From the NCBI GenBank assembly GCA_029268085.1, contig JAJUHD010000001.1:18502-82501 (forward strand): 64,000 bases of DNA, given 5' to 3'. Under the pieces are notes generated by a model. It did not search any database. It was not told the origin of the DNA and worked only from the letters and a program-made list of their open reading frames with translations. Position numbers and translations under genes: made by a program. Source of the stretch: Bacillota bacterium (lineage in GTDB: Bacteria; Bacillota; Clostridia; Oscillospirales; Oscillospiraceae). Positions 4,394 to 63,347 of this stretch are shown here, piece after piece; the stretch's first letter is position 1; the number at the start of each line of letters is the position of its first letter.

Positions 4394-5857
4394 ATGAAGT
4401 TGAATAGGATGAATTTCAGCCGATTTATCTATTTTAAGGAATTATCGGAAGAATTACTGAAGCTCGACAAGAGAATATTGAAGGGAAAAGCGCCGGAAAT
4501 AATAAAAGAGCTGGATTTTCAGGCCGAACGCATATTTCGAAGGCAAAAAGGCGGATTTTGGGACATTACGGATGGGGACAAGGTTTTTATAGGCTTTCTG
4601 AAAGAGCTTGCCCGCTCTCTTCAGAGCGGAAATCCATGCAATTCCGTCGAAGAACTGCTCAGAAAGGCGGAGTCGCTGCGTGAGGAGAGGTTGAAAATAG
4701 TTTTTCTGGCACAGGAGAGCGTATGCTGGCCGTCGCTGGAGAGCTTTTACCATTCCTGCGTCAAAGATGAGCGGTTCAATACCGATTTGGTATATGTTCC
4801 GTTTGAACACGCCAACTCGAACTCCGATGTCGATTATTTCAAGGCCTATACCGAAGAGCTCAAGCTGCCGATAATAAGGCACAATGAATACAGCGTTTCG
4901 GAGGAGAGCCCCGATCTCGCCGTTTTCGTCAAGCCATATGACTGTATACCTATTCAATATCATATTGACGCCATCCATAAGGTCGTGGAGCGGTCGGTAT
5001 ATATAAGATACGGCTTTGAGATAGCCGACTACAACGTCGATCTGCATTTCAAGCTGCCGCTCGAGCATAAGGCCTGGCGTTTCATAGCCTACGGAAAGCT
5101 TGTCAAAGAGCTTGCCGCCAAACACGGATACAGAAACGGGGAAAATGTCGCCGTCTGGGGACATCCCAGAGCCGATATGTATAGAGATTTGCCGGAAAAG
5201 AAAAAAACGCTGCCCAAGGAACTGACGGAGAAAATAAAAAACCGGAAAACAGTGCTCTGGAACACGCAGCATACGATAATGCCCGGATTTGGAGCCGGAA
5301 CATACTTTCAGTGGAAAGATGAGATTTTCAAATACTTTAAGGACAATCAGGATATGTTTCTGCTTTGGAGGCCTCATCCGCTTATGTTCGGCGCCATAGT
5401 GAACAACGGTTTTATGACCAGGGAGGAGTTGGACGCCTTTGTCAGAGAACTTTCCGCGGAGGACAACATATTAGTAGACCAGAGCACAGATTACAGAAAC
5501 GCTTTCTACGCTTCAGACGCCATCGTTACCGACGGGACCGCTTTCTTCCTTGAGTACCTCTATACGGGAAACCCTCTTCTTTACACGCCGAAAAAAGGCG
5601 GAGGCAGCATCTACAACGCGGAAGAGATTATGAAAGGCCTCTATGTGGCCCGCGAACCGAACGATGTAAAAAACTTTTTGGACATGGTAAGGGAAGGGCG
5701 GGACCCCATGAAAGATGAGAGGGATAAGCTGAAGAACGAGCTTTTATATGTGCCCGAGAATAAGAGCGTCGGACAGAATATAGTCGACAATATCGCAAAG
5801 GAACTGACAGAAGAAGAAAAGAGGAAGGCCACATCCTTTTTTGAGGGTTTAAGATGA
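4394..5857 (+). CDS. CDP-glycerol glycerophosphotransferase (TagB/TagF family)
   Basis: 487 aa. The C-terminal block FYASDAIVTDGTAFFLEYLYTGNPLLY resembles the TagF-family signature, and WGHPR / WRPHP are His-containing loops. It overlaps tagD by ATGA. Confidence 0.7.
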   Translation: MKLNRMNFSRFIYFKELSEELLKLDKRILKGKAPEIIKELDFQAERIFRRQKGGFWDITDGDKVFIGFLKELARSLQSGNPCNSVEELLRKAESLREERLKIVFLAQESVCWPSLESFYHSCVKDERFNTDLVYVPFEHANSNSDVDYFKAYTEELKLPIIRHNEYSVSEESPDLAVFVKPYDCIPIQYHIDAIHKVVERSVYIRYGFEIADYNVDLHFKLPLEHKAWRFIAYGKLVKELAAKHGYRNGENVAVWGHPRADMYRDLPEKKKTLPKELTEKIKNRKTVLWNTQHTIMPGFGAGTYFQWKDEIFKYFKDNQDMFLLWRPHPLMFGAIVNNGFMTREELDAFVRELSAEDNILVDQSTDYRNAFYASDAIVTDGTAFFLEYLYTGNPLLYTPKKGGGSIYNAEEIMKGLYVAREPNDVKNFLDMVREGRDPMKDERDKLKNELLYVPENKSVGQNIVDNIAKELTEEEKRKATSFFEGLR

Positions 5858-23695: not shown

Positions 23696-24760
23696 TTATT
23701 TGCTGTACGCGATGCGGCTTTCCTTATAAAGAGCCTTTCTGAACACAGGATCCTGGAAATGGGAAGACGTATAGATATATTTGCCGGGCAGGCTGTATTT
23801 TGCGACAATATCCTTTGCGGCCTTGATCTTCTCGTCGTCAGCGGCGTCCTTGCCGAACACGGGGAGACGGTAGCCGAGCTTGAACTTGTCGCCGAAATTC
23901 CTGTAAAGCCCGTCGAAATCGTTCATAGGCTGCGGCCTCCACATATCTATGCCGGTTTCGGCAATGACGTCGGCCAGCTTTTCTATGTGTCCGCAGCTGT
24001 GCAGCTCAAAAACTACGTTTCTTTCATGGCAGTAGGAGGTGAGCCTTTTCATGTATGGCAGGATCATTTCTCGGAATGTCTCGGCGGAGAAAAACGGCGC
24101 CATCTGGGAGCCCCAGTCGTCGTGGAAATAAAGTATCGACATTCCGAAATGCTCTATGCATTTGTCGATTATCTTTTCGTACGTCCCGCAGAGAGCGTCG
24201 AAGAGAGCCGCAACGTCTTCCTTCTGCTCGTCGTCTATGAGGGCTACGGCGGCGTTTTCGAAGTCCATGAATGAGATGAGACGTTCAAAAAGTCCCGTAA
24301 ACAGCCAAACGAGGACAGGAACGTTTTTGTCGGAAAGCAGTTTCCTGTTTCTTTCCGCGCAGCCTTCCCAATCCCAGGACTCCACATCGGGGAATTTTAT
24401 TACCCGCGGCCAGTCGCCGATGTCGGAAAGCACGGGTTTCCCCGGCTTTACCATGGAGCCGCCCGCGACCGCTATGTACTCCCATTCCACACCGAACATA
24501 TCCGGACCGCCCTTTCTGTCCGTAGGATCGGTTTCTATGACCCAGGCCCTGGCCACGTTGTCGGGAATTATCGCGGGGCAGAAGGTGATATAGTCGTCGT
24601 TAGGCATCCAGCAGGGCGTTTCGTTGCGGATAAAGGCCAGATAGTTCTCCTTTGGCGAGACAGGATAATCAAAACGGTCCACCGGATGAGAGCCCGCCAT
24701 CGAGGCGGGGTAGGTTCCGACAATCTTCAGCTCATCTTCGGAAAAAGGGATTTTCTTCAT
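23696..24760 (-). CDS. Uroporphyrinogen-decarboxylase (URO-D)/MtaA-like family protein, paralog 1 (putative methyltransferase)
   Basis: Blocks FHDDWGSQ and LHSCGH (H-x-C Zn-type motif), with a TIM-barrel-sized protein. The start is taken at MKKIPF (ATG 24760) behind GGAGGTG; the ORF-track start 24889 lacks an RBS. Confidence 0.7.
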   Translation of the reverse strand: MKKIPFSEDELKIVGTYPASMAGSHPVDRFDYPVSPKENYLAFIRNETPCWMPNDDYITFCPAIIPDNVARAWVIETDPTDRKGGPDMFGVEWEYIAVAGGSMVKPGKPVLSDIGDWPRVIKFPDVESWDWEGCAERNRKLLSDKNVPVLVWLFTGLFERLISFMDFENAAVALIDDEQKEDVAALFDALCGTYEKIIDKCIEHFGMSILYFHDDWGSQMAPFFSAETFREMILPYMKRLTSYCHERNVVFELHSCGHIEKLADVIAETGIDMWRPQPMNDFDGLYRNFGDKFKLGYRLPVFGKDAADDEKIKAAKDIVAKYSLPGKYIYTSSHFQDPVFRKALYKESRIAYSK

Positions 24761-25074
24761 TTGGCACCTCCGTGAATTATTTATTCTTGGCCCGCGCTCT
24801 GAACGGAGCCGTAAACGCCTTGAAAAGCGGAGAATCTTCAAATATAGTTCGTATGCGACTATATTGTACATTATATATCGTAATTGCACAAATGAAAAGC
24901 CCGAATACAGATAAAATTATTTAATTTGTAATATCCGAAAGAGTGCATGAGAACGGCCAAGCTGAATCGGGTTATTGAACAGCGAAAAAAATTTATCGAT
25001 AATCAATAAATAGTTGTTGACAAATAATAAATAGGTGATATATTAGCCTTATAAAGCTTTCGGGAGGAATCAAA

Positions 25075-44349: not shown

Positions 44350-44384
44350 TTAGCCGGTTGACTCAGTAAGACCAAAAGCGCATC

Positions 44385-44412
44385 GAACCCCGGGGCTTCT
44401 GCCCCGGGGTTC
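44385..44412 (+). terminator. S-layer gene terminator hairpin (left copy of a duplicated hairpin)
   Basis: A 12-bp perfect stem GAACCCCGGGGC / GCCCCGGGGTTC with loop TTCT. A diverged second copy lies at ~44607-44634, followed by the U-tract TTCTTTAATTT. Confidence 0.8.
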
Positions 44413-44413
44413 T

Positions 44414-44604
44414 CAGCTTGTCAAAGGACTTGTTTGCAGCAAAAAAGCTTCGCAGAATTTCCGCCGCAAATGGCGGAAAAAAGTCAAATCTGTCATTCCG
44501 GCGGCGTGTACGTCTGAAATGACACCTCTCATGACGGGCGCGGCAGAGCGTCCGTCATTAAACTCCCTTGTCAAAAAAGCCCATTGGGATTTTTTGACAG
44601 TCTG
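44414..44604 (+). mobile_element. Copy 1 of a ~193-nt hairpin-rich MITE-like repeat
   Basis: Starts CAGCTTGTCAAA and ends TTTGACAGTCTG (imperfect terminal inverted repeats). It is collinear with 52594-52786 and with the reverse complement of 58452-58644. It carries a 1-nt deletion and a stem mismatch relative to the other copies. Confidence 0.8.
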
Positions 44605-44720
44605 CAAACTTCGGGGCTTCTGCCCCTGGGTTCTTTAATTTGCGCCGAGTTTACAATTGCCGAAGCAGCAAGTGCCCAAGGGCTTGTGCGCCTTTGTTTG
44701 GGAGCCGGCAAAATATTGCC

Positions 44721-51688: not shown

Positions 51689-52567
51689 GTGCGGTATTTG
51701 AAAAAGCATTTTTTTATTTTGTTTTTATGCCTGTTTCTGGGTCTTACGGGAAAATCCTTCGCAGAAACCGCCGGCGTCGGCCTCGATCCGTTTATGACCG
51801 GCAGCCTGCTTTCCGGACCCGTAAAAGAGCTGCCCTGGGATAAAGAAACAGACTTTTTGGCCGCTAAGGAGCAGAACGGATGCCCGGTTCTGCTGGGGGC
51901 GTACAGAACCGTTCTTCGGGATCCGCTGCCCGGCGAGGAGCATAACGTTCATTTAGCGGCAAGCTACATTTCGGGAACAGTTATAAAGCCCGGAGAAATA
52001 TTTTCCCAGAACGGAAAAGCGGGGCCGTATACCAGAGAAAGAGGGTTCAGAGAAGGCCCCACATATCATGGGACAACGCTAGCAAAAACTATCGGAGGTG
52101 GAGTGTGCAAAATTTCCTCCACTCTCTTCAACGTCGCGGTTTTGTCCGACGTTCAGATAGTGGAGAGGCATACCCACAGTATGCCGGTTCCTTATGTGCC
52201 TTACGGGCAGGACGCAACGGTAAGCTACGGAGCAAAGGATTTCAGGTTCAGAAACAGCAGCGGGGACAACATTCTGATTATGGCGCGAGGCGTTGGAAAC
52301 AAGCTCTTCATAGCGTTTTACGGAAAAAACGCGCCTCCGGAAATCAAATGGAGCCACGAGGTCCTGAAAACCGAAAAAGCGCCGGTGCTTATAAAAAGAA
52401 ATCCGGCGCTTCCCTGCGGCACTGAAAGATTTGTTCTCGAAGGAATGGACGGCGGAGAAATAAAATCATGGATTACGCTGACTTATCCGGACGGTACAAG
52501 CCGGACAAAAGATTTCGGTATAAGCTGTTACAGGCCGCTTCCTTTCATCAAGGAAGTGTCGGATTAA
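51689..52567 (+). CDS. VanW-family protein
   Basis: GGGVCKISSTLFNVAVLSDVQIVERHTHS...YGQDATVSYGAKDFRFRN is the VanW core. An N-terminal signal/anchor is present. The start codon is uncertain (GTG 51689 or nearby). Confidence 0.85.
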   Translation: MRYLKKHFFILFLCLFLGLTGKSFAETAGVGLDPFMTGSLLSGPVKELPWDKETDFLAAKEQNGCPVLLGAYRTVLRDPLPGEEHNVHLAASYISGTVIKPGEIFSQNGKAGPYTRERGFREGPTYHGTTLAKTIGGGVCKISSTLFNVAVLSDVQIVERHTHSMPVPYVPYGQDATVSYGAKDFRFRNSSGDNILIMARGVGNKLFIAFYGKNAPPEIKWSHEVLKTEKAPVLIKRNPALPCGTERFVLEGMDGGEIKSWITLTYPDGTSRTKDFGISCYRPLPFIKEVSD

Positions 52568-52569
52568 AT

Positions 52570-52592
52570 AGCGGAGGGATCCTCCCTCCGCT
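52570..52592. terminator. Terminator hairpin, left copy of a perfectly duplicated 23/24-nt hairpin
   Basis: AGCGGAGGGA-TCC-TCCCTCCGCT has a 10-bp stem. The identical sequence recurs at 52788-52810 on the other side of repeat copy 2. Confidence 0.75.
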
Positions 52593-52593
52593 T

Positions 52594-52786
52594 CAGCTTG
52601 TCAAAGAACTTGTTTATGGCAAAAAAAGCTTCGCAGAATTTCCGCCACGAATGGCGGAAAAAAGTCAAATCTGTCATTTCCGGCGGCGTGTACGTCGGAA
52701 ATGACACCGCTCATGACGGGCGCGGCAGAGCGGCCGTCATGAAGCCCCCTTGTCAAAAAAGCCCAAAGGGCTTTTTTGACAGTCTG
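52594..52786 (+). mobile_element. Copy 2 of the ~193-nt hairpin-rich MITE-like repeat (best-preserved copy)
   Basis: The ends are CAGCTTGTCAAA...TTTGACAGTCTG. Internal perfect hairpins are CCGCC-N6-GGCGG, GTCATTTCCG-N-CGGAAATGAC, CATGACGG-N-CCGTCATG and TTGTCAAAAAAGCCC-AAA-GGGCTTTTTTGACA. It is flanked by identical 24-nt direct repeats. Confidence 0.85.
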
Positions 52787-52787
52787 A

Positions 52788-52810
52788 AGCGGAGGGATCC
52801 TCCCTCCGCT
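52788..52810. terminator. Terminator hairpin, right copy of the duplicated hairpin
   Basis: Identical to 52570-52592. It is followed by TTT and lies 2 nt from the stop of the minus-strand peptidase gene. Confidence 0.75.
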
Positions 52811-52812
52811 TT

Positions 52813-54084
52813 TCAAACAAGCGCGCCCCGCAGCAGTATTTCCTCGTTCTGATTATATATTTCGGGAAACTGCACGGGGGGGATGGGGTTCACTCCGAGC
52901 CCAACCTCGATTGTGAAGCCCGGCTCCCTGAAATCCTGTATGAACCAGTCCTTGTATCCTGCGTACGACGCTTCATAGGGGTTTTCCGATATGGCATAGC
53001 CGCTGACCCTTGAAAAAAGCTCCGCTATGGCGGTCGATTCGGGCGGCTGGAGATCTTTGAAAGTATAGTAGATTACCTCGCCCTGCGTGTGATAAGAGAT
53101 AGTCAGGCTGAAGCCCTGTCTTCTGGTGAAATCGGCCATCGCGGCGGATTCAGGTTCCGAGAGGGGGGCTTCTCCTCCGTAATCCCTTGGCGCCGGCCCG
53201 GTTATCCCCTGGGCCAGCTCATCCTCTTTTTCTTTTTCCCATTCCGCCGGGTAGTTCAGATTCAAATCGACGCCGCGGATATTCGCTTTCCAGACGCGCG
53301 GAAGCGGAAGGCCGGTTTTGTTGAGCTTTGCCGCCTCCGTGTAAGCGGGATCGGTGTAGTTGGGCCAGTAATTGACGAGGTCGACTCCGTCGGGATTGAC
53401 CATGGGTATTATGTAGATGCTGCTTCGCTCCCAGATGTCAGATGTCCGGTAGCCGCGGATGCTTCCGCCCGTCGAATAGGCCTTTGAGAAGTTTTCGATG
53501 AACTTCATCAAAAGCGGCGTGGTAATGCTTTCGTTGGCGTGGTGAGATGCGTTGTAGGATACCGTGTTCGCCCCTCTGCCTATCCTGATGTAAAAAAGGG
53601 TTTTCCCCATAACGCTTTTTCCTATGCTTCCGACGGACAGGAAGGGATATCTTGCGCGAAGCCCGCGTATCTGCCGTTCCAAAATCTCGTAAGTATAGTC
53701 TATGTCCGTGTATACGACGTCCAGGCCGTAAGGCACCGTAAGCCTTTGGCCAACGGAAATGCGGTCCGGGTCTATTCCCGGATTTGCCGTCAGTACGGCG
53801 TTTTGAGTAGTGTAAAACTTCTTTGCTATCTTGTATATCGTATCGCCCGGCCGAACCGTGTAGTTGGCATAGCCCACAATAAAGCGCTCCATGACTCGCC
53901 AGGTTTCGGGGCCTGCTATTCCGTCCGGCGTCAAGCCGTAATCTCTTTGAAAACCGATCACGGCTGACCTGGTCTGATTTCCGAACTGCCCGTCTATGGG
54001 TCCGGGGCTGTATCCGAGCCTCCTCAGAAGGCTCTGTATCAATTTGACGTTAGGGCCTGAGGAGCCCAAAAGCATCGTTTCCAT
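52813..54084 (-). CDS. M14-family gamma-D-glutamyl-meso-diaminopimelate peptidase with N-terminal PG-binding and LysM domains
   Basis: The PG_binding_1 block is LLRRLGYSPGPIDGQFGNQTRSAVIGFQ. The LysM block is YTVRPGDTIYKIAKKF...LTANPGI. The M14 zinc motif is HHANE, with a downstream H in ISYHTQG. Confidence 0.85.
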   Translation of the reverse strand: METMLLGSSGPNVKLIQSLLRRLGYSPGPIDGQFGNQTRSAVIGFQRDYGLTPDGIAGPETWRVMERFIVGYANYTVRPGDTIYKIAKKFYTTQNAVLTANPGIDPDRISVGQRLTVPYGLDVVYTDIDYTYEILERQIRGLRARYPFLSVGSIGKSVMGKTLFYIRIGRGANTVSYNASHHANESITTPLLMKFIENFSKAYSTGGSIRGYRTSDIWERSSIYIIPMVNPDGVDLVNYWPNYTDPAYTEAAKLNKTGLPLPRVWKANIRGVDLNLNYPAEWEKEKEDELAQGITGPAPRDYGGEAPLSEPESAAMADFTRRQGFSLTISYHTQGEVIYYTFKDLQPPESTAIAELFSRVSGYAISENPYEASYAGYKDWFIQDFREPGFTIEVGLGVNPIPPVQFPEIYNQNEEILLRGALV

Positions 54085-58232: not shown

Positions 58233-58451
58233 AATAAAGTACCTCCTGAATATCACTTTATTACAACATAGCCCCTTTCTGCTGCTTTCGGAACGAATTT
58301 TCCGCAAGCCGGAGAAAAAGAGCGCCTTAGGCAAAAAGCAGGGGGTAAACGGCGCGTTTGCTTTTTTTCCCGGCGCTGAAAACGTTTGGAAGGCGAAAGC
58401 GACCGTTTGGAGAGCAAAAAAAACAGAAACGCCGCCAGTAAATGCAGGCGG

Positions 58452-58644
58452 CAGACTGTCAAAAAAGCCCTTTGGGCTTTTTTGACAAGGGGGTTTAATG
58501 ACGGACGCTCTGCAGCGCCCGTCATGAGAGGTGTCATTTCCGACGTACACGCCGACTGAAATGACAGATTTGACTTTGTTTCCGCCATTCGCGGCGGAAA
58601 TTCTGCGAAGCTTTTTTGCTGTAAACAAGTTTTTCGACACGCAG
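58452..58644 (-). mobile_element. Copy 3 (inverted) of the ~193-nt hairpin-rich MITE-like repeat, in the acs upstream region
   Basis: The reverse complement is collinear with copies 1 and 2. The left TIR is degenerate (CTGCGTGTCGAAAAACTTG). A GCCGCC...GGCGGC hairpin plus a T-run abuts its right end, and only a partial duplicate abuts its left end. Confidence 0.8.
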
Positions 58645-58663
58645 CCGCCGCAAATAAAATGAA

Positions 58664-62030: not shown

Positions 62031-62152
62031 TATGCTCTCCCCGTGACGAAAGGTTGCCGCGTATTATAATCCGCCATTATACGCTGAGGATATTATAACA
62101 TTATAAATGCCCCCGCACAACTCGTATGTTGCTTCCAGCGCAAAGGTTTTTA

Positions 62153-63190
62153 TTATTCGTTGTACGCTTCCCGGCTCAGAGCATAAACGTATTCGAAAAG
62201 CTTTGCGGGCGAAACGCTCGGGCGAAGCGCGGCCTGAACGCCTCCGGTGTTTCCGCACTTCCTTATGAAAGCTTTAGCGGCCTCATAACAGGTTTCGTCG
62301 CTCGCATCGGCGGGCAGGTCGGCGGGATTTATAGCCATGATAAGCTTGTTTCCGTACCTCTCGCGGAGCGCGAACTTGTCGTTCATATCCTGCCCGCTCC
62401 AGGAATCCATGCCCGCTTCTATCATCAGCGGGACAAGCCGCTCGACCTTGCCGCAGCAGTGGAAATCAAAGTAGATGTTCTTGGAGTGCATGTAATCGAC
62501 GATCCTTTTTATGTAGGGGAAAATCATTTCTTTGCAGGTGTCGTAGGAGAAGAAGGAATCTCTCTGGGAGCCCCAATCGTCGTGAAAGCACAAAACCTCG
62601 ACGTTGAAATACTTTTTGCAGTTGTCTATCATCTTTTCATAAATTCCGCAAAGATAGTTGAAGAGGCGGTGAACGCCTTCCTTCTGCTCGTCGTCGATAA
62701 GCGCCATAGCAGCGTACTGGAAGTCCATAAAAGAGATGAGCCTTTCAAAAAAACCGGTCAGTATGGTTGTTTTCGTGATCAGGGTCGGGTCGTACTTCTC
62801 CTTAAGCTGAGCGCTGGCGCCTTCCCAGTCCCAGGAATCCACGTCCGGAAGCGTCACGCATTCCTCCCATCGGTTGATATCCTCCACGGTAGGCGAGCCG
62901 GGTCTTACGATGCCGCCCTTGACGGCGGGAACGTACACCCACTCTATGCCGAAAATGTCCTTGCCTTCCTTTTCGGTGCGGCAGACGTGATCGGGAAATA
63001 TTACGGTGTTGACAGGGTTCGTCTCGCCCAAGGCGAAGGGCATCCAGACCGGGACTTCCCTCCGATAAAGCGCCAGAGTGTTTTCTCGCGGTGCGACAGG
63101 GGTGTTGAATCGAACTATTTTACCGCCCATGACATTGTAAGCGCCGATGATTTTGAGTTCTTCCTGCGGATTAAACTTGACCCTATCCAT
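62153..63190 (-). CDS. URO-D/MtaA-like family protein, paralog 2
   Basis: It shares long blocks with 23696-24760: DVxSWDWEG, TGxFERLISFMDF, ALIDDEQKE, FHDDWGSQ and H-x-CG. ATG lies behind AGAGGTG. Confidence 0.7.
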   Translation of the reverse strand: MDRVKFNPQEELKIIGAYNVMGGKIVRFNTPVAPRENTLALYRREVPVWMPFALGETNPVNTVIFPDHVCRTEKEGKDIFGIEWVYVPAVKGGIVRPGSPTVEDINRWEECVTLPDVDSWDWEGASAQLKEKYDPTLITKTTILTGFFERLISFMDFQYAAMALIDDEQKEGVHRLFNYLCGIYEKMIDNCKKYFNVEVLCFHDDWGSQRDSFFSYDTCKEMIFPYIKRIVDYMHSKNIYFDFHCCGKVERLVPLMIEAGMDSWSGQDMNDKFALRERYGNKLIMAINPADLPADASDETCYEAAKAFIRKCGNTGGVQAALRPSVSPAKLFEYVYALSREAYNE

Positions 63191-63347
63191 AATACACCTC
63201 TTACATTAAAAAAATTCATTTTGGAATCTGTTTTTAATTATATAAAGATATTATGGAAAGTCAACGCGTAACATGCTTTGTAATGTAAAGTTTATCAATT
63301 ATCAATAAGAAATGAGAAAAATATTGTATAAAAAAAGCGGTGAGAAA

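Follow-up and report, generated by a model that had tools for sequence, protein, structure and literature searches.

A gene-less repeat family of Clostridia that probably inserts at terminator hairpins and duplicates the whole hairpin

Introduction

IS1630, which belongs to the IS30 family, is an insertion sequence of Mycoplasma fermentans (Calcutt, Lavrrar and Wise 1999, J Bacteriol 181:7597). Two later papers that cite this work describe its duplications of inverted repeats, with lengths given as 16-26 or 19-26 bp (PMC2853133, PMC3317919). The IS is autonomous and 1.4 kb long, has an IS30-type transposase of its own and terminal repeats of 27 bp, and occurs in fewer than ten copies in its mollicute host. 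Its targets reportedly include terminators. IS1272/TnSha1, which belongs to the IS1182 family and is found in staphylococci, also selects hairpins, mostly terminators, without a sequence consensus, and can enter the same terminator repeatedly (PMC4923244, PMC5678879). IS1272 removes or replaces the stem-loop in part or whole and leaves no target duplication.

Classical bacterial MITEs carry short target duplications of fixed length. Correia, RUP, BOX, ERIC and MITEAba12 elements are small, non-coding, structured and intergenic, occur in many copies and have terminal inverted repeats (PMC10969869, PMC3184786). A 2024 review of prokaryotic MITEs contains no IS30-derived MITE and nothing comparable to the family described here, and terminators are discussed there only as parts of elements. 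Long, variable, target-derived direct repeats are also known from the 'insertion with long target duplication' of restriction-modification genes. However, these repeats measure 30-400+ bp and are not defined by hairpins, and the inserts are unique cassettes that lack terminal repeats and form no multi-copy family (PMC2853133).

Here, we analyse a small repeat found in a 64-kb stretch of clostridial DNA, the whole of which is called the window below. The repeat is one copy of a gene-less family that reaches about a hundred copies in some Clostridia genomes, and it is most probably a non-autonomous DNA transposon (MITE) that inserts at terminator hairpins and duplicates the whole hairpin. The family resembles Correia, RUP, BOX, ERIC and MITEAba12 in the features listed above, and it resembles IS1272/TnSha1 in selecting hairpins without a sequence consensus in entering them in both orientations and in being able to enter one terminator more than once, whereas it duplicates the stem-loop that IS1272 removes or replaces. 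With IS1630, as described in PMC2853133 and PMC3317919, it shares the variable-length duplication of inverted repeats. Unlike IS1630, the element is 192 nt long and gene-less, reaches up to about 100 copies in a clostridial genome (Sporobacter and relatives) and makes duplications of up to 40 bp. The family is a new, high-copy, non-autonomous form of a rare but known behaviour. An earlier note on this DNA, made from the sequence alone, had recognised the whole-hairpin duplication, but was unaware of the IS1630 precedent (PMC2853133, PMC3317919).

In the literature surveyed, duplication that tracks a hairpin was previously seen only in a handful of IS1630 copies in Mycoplasma. The more than 50 independent, readable insertions presented here document transposition that measures its target by DNA shape and not by a fixed enzyme length, and they give a statistical view of cut positions relative to the stem.

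The element at the VanW/M14 peptidase junction

The 24-mer AGCGGAGGGATCCTCCCTCCGCTT has only two matches on the forward strand of the window, at 52570-52593 and 52788-52811, both without mismatch; 100 shuffles gave an expectation of zero. Each copy folds into a hairpin with a 10-bp stem and a 3-nt loop. The pair lies between two convergent genes assigned by Pfam, a VanW gene on the forward strand (51689-52567, PF04294) and an M14 peptidase gene on the reverse strand (52813-54084, PF00246), with 2 nt between the VanW stop codon and the left hairpin and 1 nt between the M14 peptidase stop codon and the right one.

Between the two hairpins lies copy A of the element (52594-52786, forward strand; nhmmer E = 2e-70 against the family profile). 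It is 193 nt long, its 5'-CAG...CTG-3' ends were set by comparison with other family members, and a single base, the A at 52787, separates it from the right duplication. The left terminal inverted repeat is CAGCTTGTCAAAGAA (52594-52608) and the right one TTTTTTGACAGTCTG (52772-52786); they are imperfect, with CAGCTTGTCAAA and CAGACTGTCAAA matching at 10 of 12 positions.

This layout had been described in the earlier note, and most of it holds, including the convergent vanW and M14 peptidase flanks, the perfect 24-bp duplication around an insert, the complete 10-bp-stem hairpin in each flanking 24-mer and the imperfect terminal repeats of the insert. Its boundaries needed correction: the right duplication ends at 52811 and not at 52810, and the insert as the note delimited it (52594-52787) comes to 194 nt, whereas the element itself has 193.

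Family members and hosts

Repeat search and an nhmmer profile found three copies in the window. Copy B (44414-44604, forward strand, 191 nt) lies downstream of an SLH-protein gene between duplications of a different hairpin (cgaaccccggggcttctgccccggggttct), the left at 44384-44413 and the right at 44605-44634, which agree at 26 of 30 positions. Copy C (58452-58644, reverse strand, 193 nt) is older and has a degenerate left end (CTGCGTGTCG); it is flanked by a full hairpin on the right only (58430-58451), with a partial hairpin on the left (58645-58658).

A genome scan with an exact 19-mer from the element core, using one genome per species, returned at least 106 stretches. Among the matches listed, 83 came from 'Clostridiales bacterium bin38' (JAJUGN01), 13 from bin70 (JAJUHS01) and four from Sporobacter termitidis DSM 10068, and six were chance matches in unrelated phyla. 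Both bin38 and bin70 are metagenome-assembled genomes, and most of the data come from fragmented assemblies of this kind. When the profile built from the three window copies was run against the window and the genome-scan loci, it gave at least 119 matches at E < 1e-15, of which 76 were full length and 101 lay in the 537 kb of bin38 sequence. At least 63 full copies are present in bin38, and the median pairwise identity among family copies is 92%. Diverged lineages were found in Sporobacter termitidis (L035 and L039) and, in a scan of JGI metagenomes, on Ga0123327_1012228.

Family members measure 191-194 nt (about 192 nt). Their terminal repeats, CAGCTTGTCAAAAA and CAGACTGTCAAAAA, match at about 12 of 15 positions and are conserved across copies and lineages, and the element ends follow the consensus CAG(C/A)(T/C)TGTC(A/G)AAAA. 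No reading frame is conserved, as the short ORFs differ among copies and the stop position in copy A is unlike that in the others. Being small, non-coding and dispersed, with terminal inverted repeats, target duplications and empty sites, the family shows the features of a MITE. We call it non-autonomous on the basis of its lack of coding capacity; no autonomous parent was found in the DNA searched.

About 35 bin38 copies are cut short where a contig or the sequence analysed ends, so the repeat evidently breaks the assembly, and it is a main cause of bin38 fragmentation. The family thus explains contig breaks in these metagenome-assembled genomes. Some bin38 stretches, among them L019, L058 and L075, carry copies at both ends.

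A plasmid collection searched with the element gave no match, and scans of viral contigs with the end sequences gave only chance matches and one conserved phage gene. The latter refers to the 19-mer CAGCTTGTCAAAGAACTTG, found in about 40 related phage contigs from IMG/VR (L230-L280) within a conserved coding region; it was rejected as an element, the likeness to the left terminal repeat being due to chance.

Duplicated hairpins and empty sites

Flanking sequences were compared for 63 full CAG...CTG copies whose flanks extend for at least 45 nt in each direction. A direct duplication was found at 54 of these, in three genomes and a metagenome contig (52 ungapped and two gapped). The earlier note had proposed this check, and its interpretation passed it, as it did the others that the note had set. 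The median length is 28 bp; one AT-rich duplication has 12 bp, all the others fall between 22 and 40 bp, and 21 are perfect. The diverged lineages behave in the same way: the duplicated hairpin measures about 25-27 bp in the Sporobacter copies L035 and L039, and the metagenome contig L283 has a perfect duplication of 35 bp.

In the ungapped set, the duplication directly abuts the element (0 nt) on the left at 45 of 52 copies and on the right at 49 of 52. Folds of the duplication are paired to within one base of the 5' end in 37 of the 52 copies and of the 3' end in 38. Stems of the duplicated hairpins are 7-16 bp long. Since the A and T tracts in folds of reconstructed empty sites blur the stem boundaries, this geometry was taken from the duplication alone. 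The length of the duplication tracks each hairpin, which excludes a fixed ruler.

The hairpins themselves are not shared. The longest exact word common to duplications of different copies is at most 10 nt, and no duplication was seen anywhere in the DNA examined except beside its own element, on the two sides of it. The hairpins are therefore target sequence and not part of the element, in agreement with the view that they are local.

With two exceptions (L002 and L039), the loops of the two hairpin copies point the same way. In these two (L002:6507 and L039:4453), the stems match and the right copy carries the left copy's loop as its reverse complement, a pattern suggestive of template switching that inverted the loop, either in the course of gap repair or later.

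Insert-free relatives carry one hairpin and not two, as duplication of a target would predict. A relative's M14 peptidase (P0003, on Logan contig L108) is 80% identical to that of the window, and a convergent VanW gene follows 33 nt further on. The 33-nt spacer holds a single hairpin, AAATATCGGAGGGG ctta CCCCTCCGATATTT, visibly homologous to the duplicated CGGAGGG/CCCTCCG stem of the window (site A). At the equivalent of site B in JAJUHC01, a genome of about 80% nucleotide identity, there is one terminator hairpin, unrelated in sequence, and no element (L281); the intergenic regions at this site are too diverged for base-by-base alignment. The element is also absent at site C in JAJUHC01 (L107). 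No clean empty site came from the comparison of L016 with L036, because gene order differs between them.

Two further loci illustrate independent insertion. In L063 (bin38) and L030 (bin70), an element follows the same orthologous gene, though the hairpins are unrelated and the elements lie in opposite orientation; these are independent events in two species. Genes of bin38 and bin70 are 71-79% identical, whereas their elements are more than 90% identical, a difference that indicates recent activity or transfer.

Terminators as insertion targets

A gene 3' end faces the insertion site at 50 of 52 copies (96%), and at 37 of 52 (71%) one does so on both sides. Among 2,580 random positions from the same loci, the corresponding values were 48% and 8%. 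A facing gene was defined as an ORF of at least 90 aa that is read toward the site and ends within 150 nt of it, a crude criterion that nevertheless gave a large contrast. Stop codons lie a median of 16 nt from the duplication. The element enters intrinsic terminators, preferring those that convergent genes share, and its targets are picked by DNA structure, the GC-rich inverted repeat of the terminator, and not by sequence.

Where a single gene lies upstream, the element is oriented one way in six cases and the other way in seven. This lack of bias argues for a symmetric, double-stranded target and not for a process linked to transcription or to one strand.

Insertion of this kind leaves each of two convergent genes with a terminator, a 'safe harbour' strategy. 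In addition, the family marks functional terminators in poorly studied Clostridia.

Proposed mechanism and candidate enzymes

In the reading that we favour, a MITE moved at terminator hairpins, a transposase acting in trans would attach the two ends of the element at the feet of the stem, each to a different strand, the target palindrome probably being extruded as a cruciform. The stagger between the joining points would equal the whole length of the hairpin, and gap repair would then copy the hairpin to both sides of the element. Both neighbouring genes would thus keep a complete terminator, making the site a harmless landing place.

A cruciform model drawn up for IS1272 includes a route in which the 3' OH ends of the element attack the 5' feet and the whole stem-loop is duplicated (PMC5678879, Fig. 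13, pathway b). The proposed joining, which is the simplest account and follows the earlier note, corresponds to pathway b of that model (PMC5678879). We infer the strand-transfer chemistry, the recognition of a cruciform or of a single-stranded hairpin, and the identity of the enzyme. As for the earlier note, its mobile element that duplicates a whole terminator is borne out by 54 of 63 copies and by the empty sites, whereas the staggered cuts at the hairpin bases that it proposed belong to this inferred chemistry.

The best leads for the enzyme, by analogy with the systems above, would be an IS30-type (IS1630-like) or an IS1182-type transposase. Pfam found no transposase, integrase or Cas1 among the 54 window ORFs of at least 100 aa, at least 13 of which have no Pfam match of any kind; to that extent, the claim that the window holds no transposase, casposase or recombinase gene is upheld. 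A full-length parent should be bounded by the family end sequence CAGNNTGTCRAAAAA in inverted orientation over 1-2.5 kb. The parent that the note had suggested, with the same ends and a transposase, was found neither in the window nor in 0.79 Mb of related DNA.

Other searches gave similar results. E. coli IS30 InsI, compared by phmmer with 1,933 six-frame ORFs from the partial genomes, had a best E of 1.1, and the element ends, which are short and imperfect, show no meaningful similarity to the E. coli IS30 repeat TGTAGATTCAATTGGTCAACGCAACA. All-against-all blastn between loci revealed no repeated ISs, and a regular-expression search for the terminal repeats was too noisy and yielded no parent. 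Inserts of 60-6000 bp were also scanned for flanking direct repeats of the hairpin type, again with no parent among them; the scan returned only the MITE family, a composite of 345 nt and, in Sporobacter, a dnaJ-like gene between two REP-like hairpins. If the enzyme is found, it could become a tool for sequence-independent, structure-directed insertion.

Internal structure and alternative explanations

The element is strongly structured. Its DNA fold contains four strong local hairpins, with a free energy of -57.5 kcal/mol and a z-score of -8.8 relative to shuffles. In copy A these are H1 (52639-52660, TTTCCGCC/GGCGGAAA), H2 (52672-52706, a 14-bp stem), H3 (52709-52745) and H4 (52751-52781), all on the forward strand. 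The last is a terminator-like palindrome with an A-run, a GC stem and a T-run; its outer arm belongs to the right terminal repeat, and the inner one is similar to a left terminal repeat. RNAalifold, applied to 63 near-identical copies, gave an implausible long-range fold, so the single-sequence DNA fold was used and tested on a diverse alignment. Across ten sequences including the diverged lineages, 92.7% of alignment cells pair, and eight pairs have changed on both sides, a number reached in none of 500 shuffles and compared with 0-3 in slid controls. These compensatory pairs lie mostly in H3, whose stem they preserve in the diverged lineages, and in H4, which holds four of them. In palindromic DNA, compensatory changes could reflect selection or hairpin-templated correction. 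The conserved internal hairpins hint at an additional role that falls outside the transposition model.

The mobilising enzyme could also be an uncharacterised structure-specific transposase, or a junction-cutting host enzyme that has been recruited, which reads extruded cruciforms and cuts at both feet. The four conserved hairpins, including the palindromic terminal-repeat end, would then be part of that recognition. We consider this version unlikely. If true, it would be a natural system for insertion into terminators in which neither neighbouring gene is disturbed.

Four other explanations are taken here in decreasing order of probability, each of them low. The first, which is very unlikely, is that a casposase-like or CRISPR-like integrase of the Cas1 type attacks both borders of a palindromic repeat that is subsequently duplicated. 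Formally, the layout of repeat, insert and repeat with a palindromic unit of 22-40 bp is the same, and in CRISPR and casposon systems, too, a palindromic unit is attacked with a stagger at its two borders. The analogy with CRISPR spacer integration drawn in the earlier note therefore holds for the layout, but goes no further, as the duplication follows the hairpin. Casposons make short duplications of constant length, and a ruler sets that of the CRISPR repeat; here, the length varies between 22 and 40 bp with each hairpin. Those systems also require Cas1 and a leader-proximal repeat or a specific site, neither of which holds here. Pfam found no Cas1 domain in the window, and no arrays were seen. 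Moreover, CAG/CTG terminal inverted repeats are typical of cut-and-paste transposons.

The strong, conserved structure with its eight covarying pairs, together with a terminator as target, could also suggest an RNA-based origin, either a retroelement that homes to terminators in the manner of group IIC introns or a structured-RNA gene of the host spread by recombination. Group IIC introns home to terminators and insert after terminator stems. Retrohoming, however, makes no stem duplication, the element shows no orientation bias with respect to transcription, and its precise ends and terminal inverted repeats are in keeping with DNA transposition. With cmscan run at E-values of up to 10, Rfam returned only chance-level matches (best E of 0.58 or more, far below gathering scores), and neither copy A nor the sequence beside it showed a promoter-like site. 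Such an origin is highly improbable.

Site-specific recombination by a tyrosine or serine recombinase, with the hairpins as attL and attR of an Xer/dif-like or integron attC-like system, has very little probability. Recombinases typically act at imperfect palindromes, and a circle that integrates would leave a direct repeat of the site. An attachment site carried by the element would nevertheless be constant across copies, whereas the hairpins differ entirely from copy to copy while usually being identical or nearly so around any one copy. It is also the whole hairpin that is duplicated, not just a crossover core, and neither a conserved core of the flanking hairpins nor a circular form bearing a hairpin was seen, nor was a recombinase gene found nearby.

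Finally, the idea that the hairpins belong to a REP/BIME/REPIN-like or composite repeat unit and are not duplicated target, suggested by the many bacterial interspersed repeats that are hairpins and by the palindromic right end of the element itself, is refuted by hairpins that are each confined to one locus and share no words above 10 nt, and by empty sites that keep one hairpin, homologous at site A (L108) and unrelated in sequence at site B.

Exceptional copies and other repeats

Nine of the 63 copies lack a matching duplication and so count against the MITE reading, that of insertion with hairpin duplication. Four of them (L102, L054, L044 and L052) have two different hairpins at their flanks, a pattern that could have arisen by recombination between copies at different sites. 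Two (L033 and L089) are parts of the 345-nt composite, formed with a second family that has the terminal repeat in common with the first; a hairpin duplication of at least 28 bp surrounds the entire composite in L089. The others are copy C of the window, with its degenerate left end and only a partial left hairpin, and L009 and L020, which have no hairpin at the left flank.

At L044:2905-2950 and L102:2830-2885, 8-13 bases of terminal-repeat sequence lie beyond the flanking hairpin and extend the palindrome. These bases could be the remnant of a neighbouring element or an extension of the palindrome.

The second short family starts with CAGACTGTCAAAAAACTCCCTYGCAGGG and has the same terminal repeat. 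It was found at L089:2405-2557, L033:4-142, L095:7757-7890 and L107:16553-16688, and its copies in L089 and L033 are joined to the main family in the 345-nt composite, which has perfect outer repeats. In L107:16553-16688, one end is a palindrome of the terminal repeat, and the flanking direct repeat of about 55 bp is longer than the hairpin.

The M14 peptidase and VanW genes are adjacent in the window and in L108, unlike in L107 (JAJUHC01), where a five-gene operon for a branched-chain amino-acid ABC transporter lies between them (L107:11273-16837). Directly after the M14 terminator hairpin, the L107 sequence begins with CAGACTG, which resembles the terminal repeat. On another metagenome contig (L285:1629-1756), two partial copies of the left part of the element (…TTCGCAGAATTTCCGCCGCTTAGCG…) stand in tandem, with the rest absent.

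In Sporobacter termitidis, an unrelated REP-like hairpin, TGTCATTCCCGCGAAGGCGGGAATCCA, lies on both sides of the dnaJ-like gene (L034:3284-3310 and 4788-4814), and a tandem array of a 21-nt unit adjoins it (L034:4640-4790). Within the window, positions 24041-24298 and 62501-62758 are 75% identical. They fall in two ORFs: 23696-24889, which has a weak URO-D match, and 62126-63271, which has no Pfam match and whose ortholog in L107 has a weak URO-D match. These two ORFs are probably paralogues.
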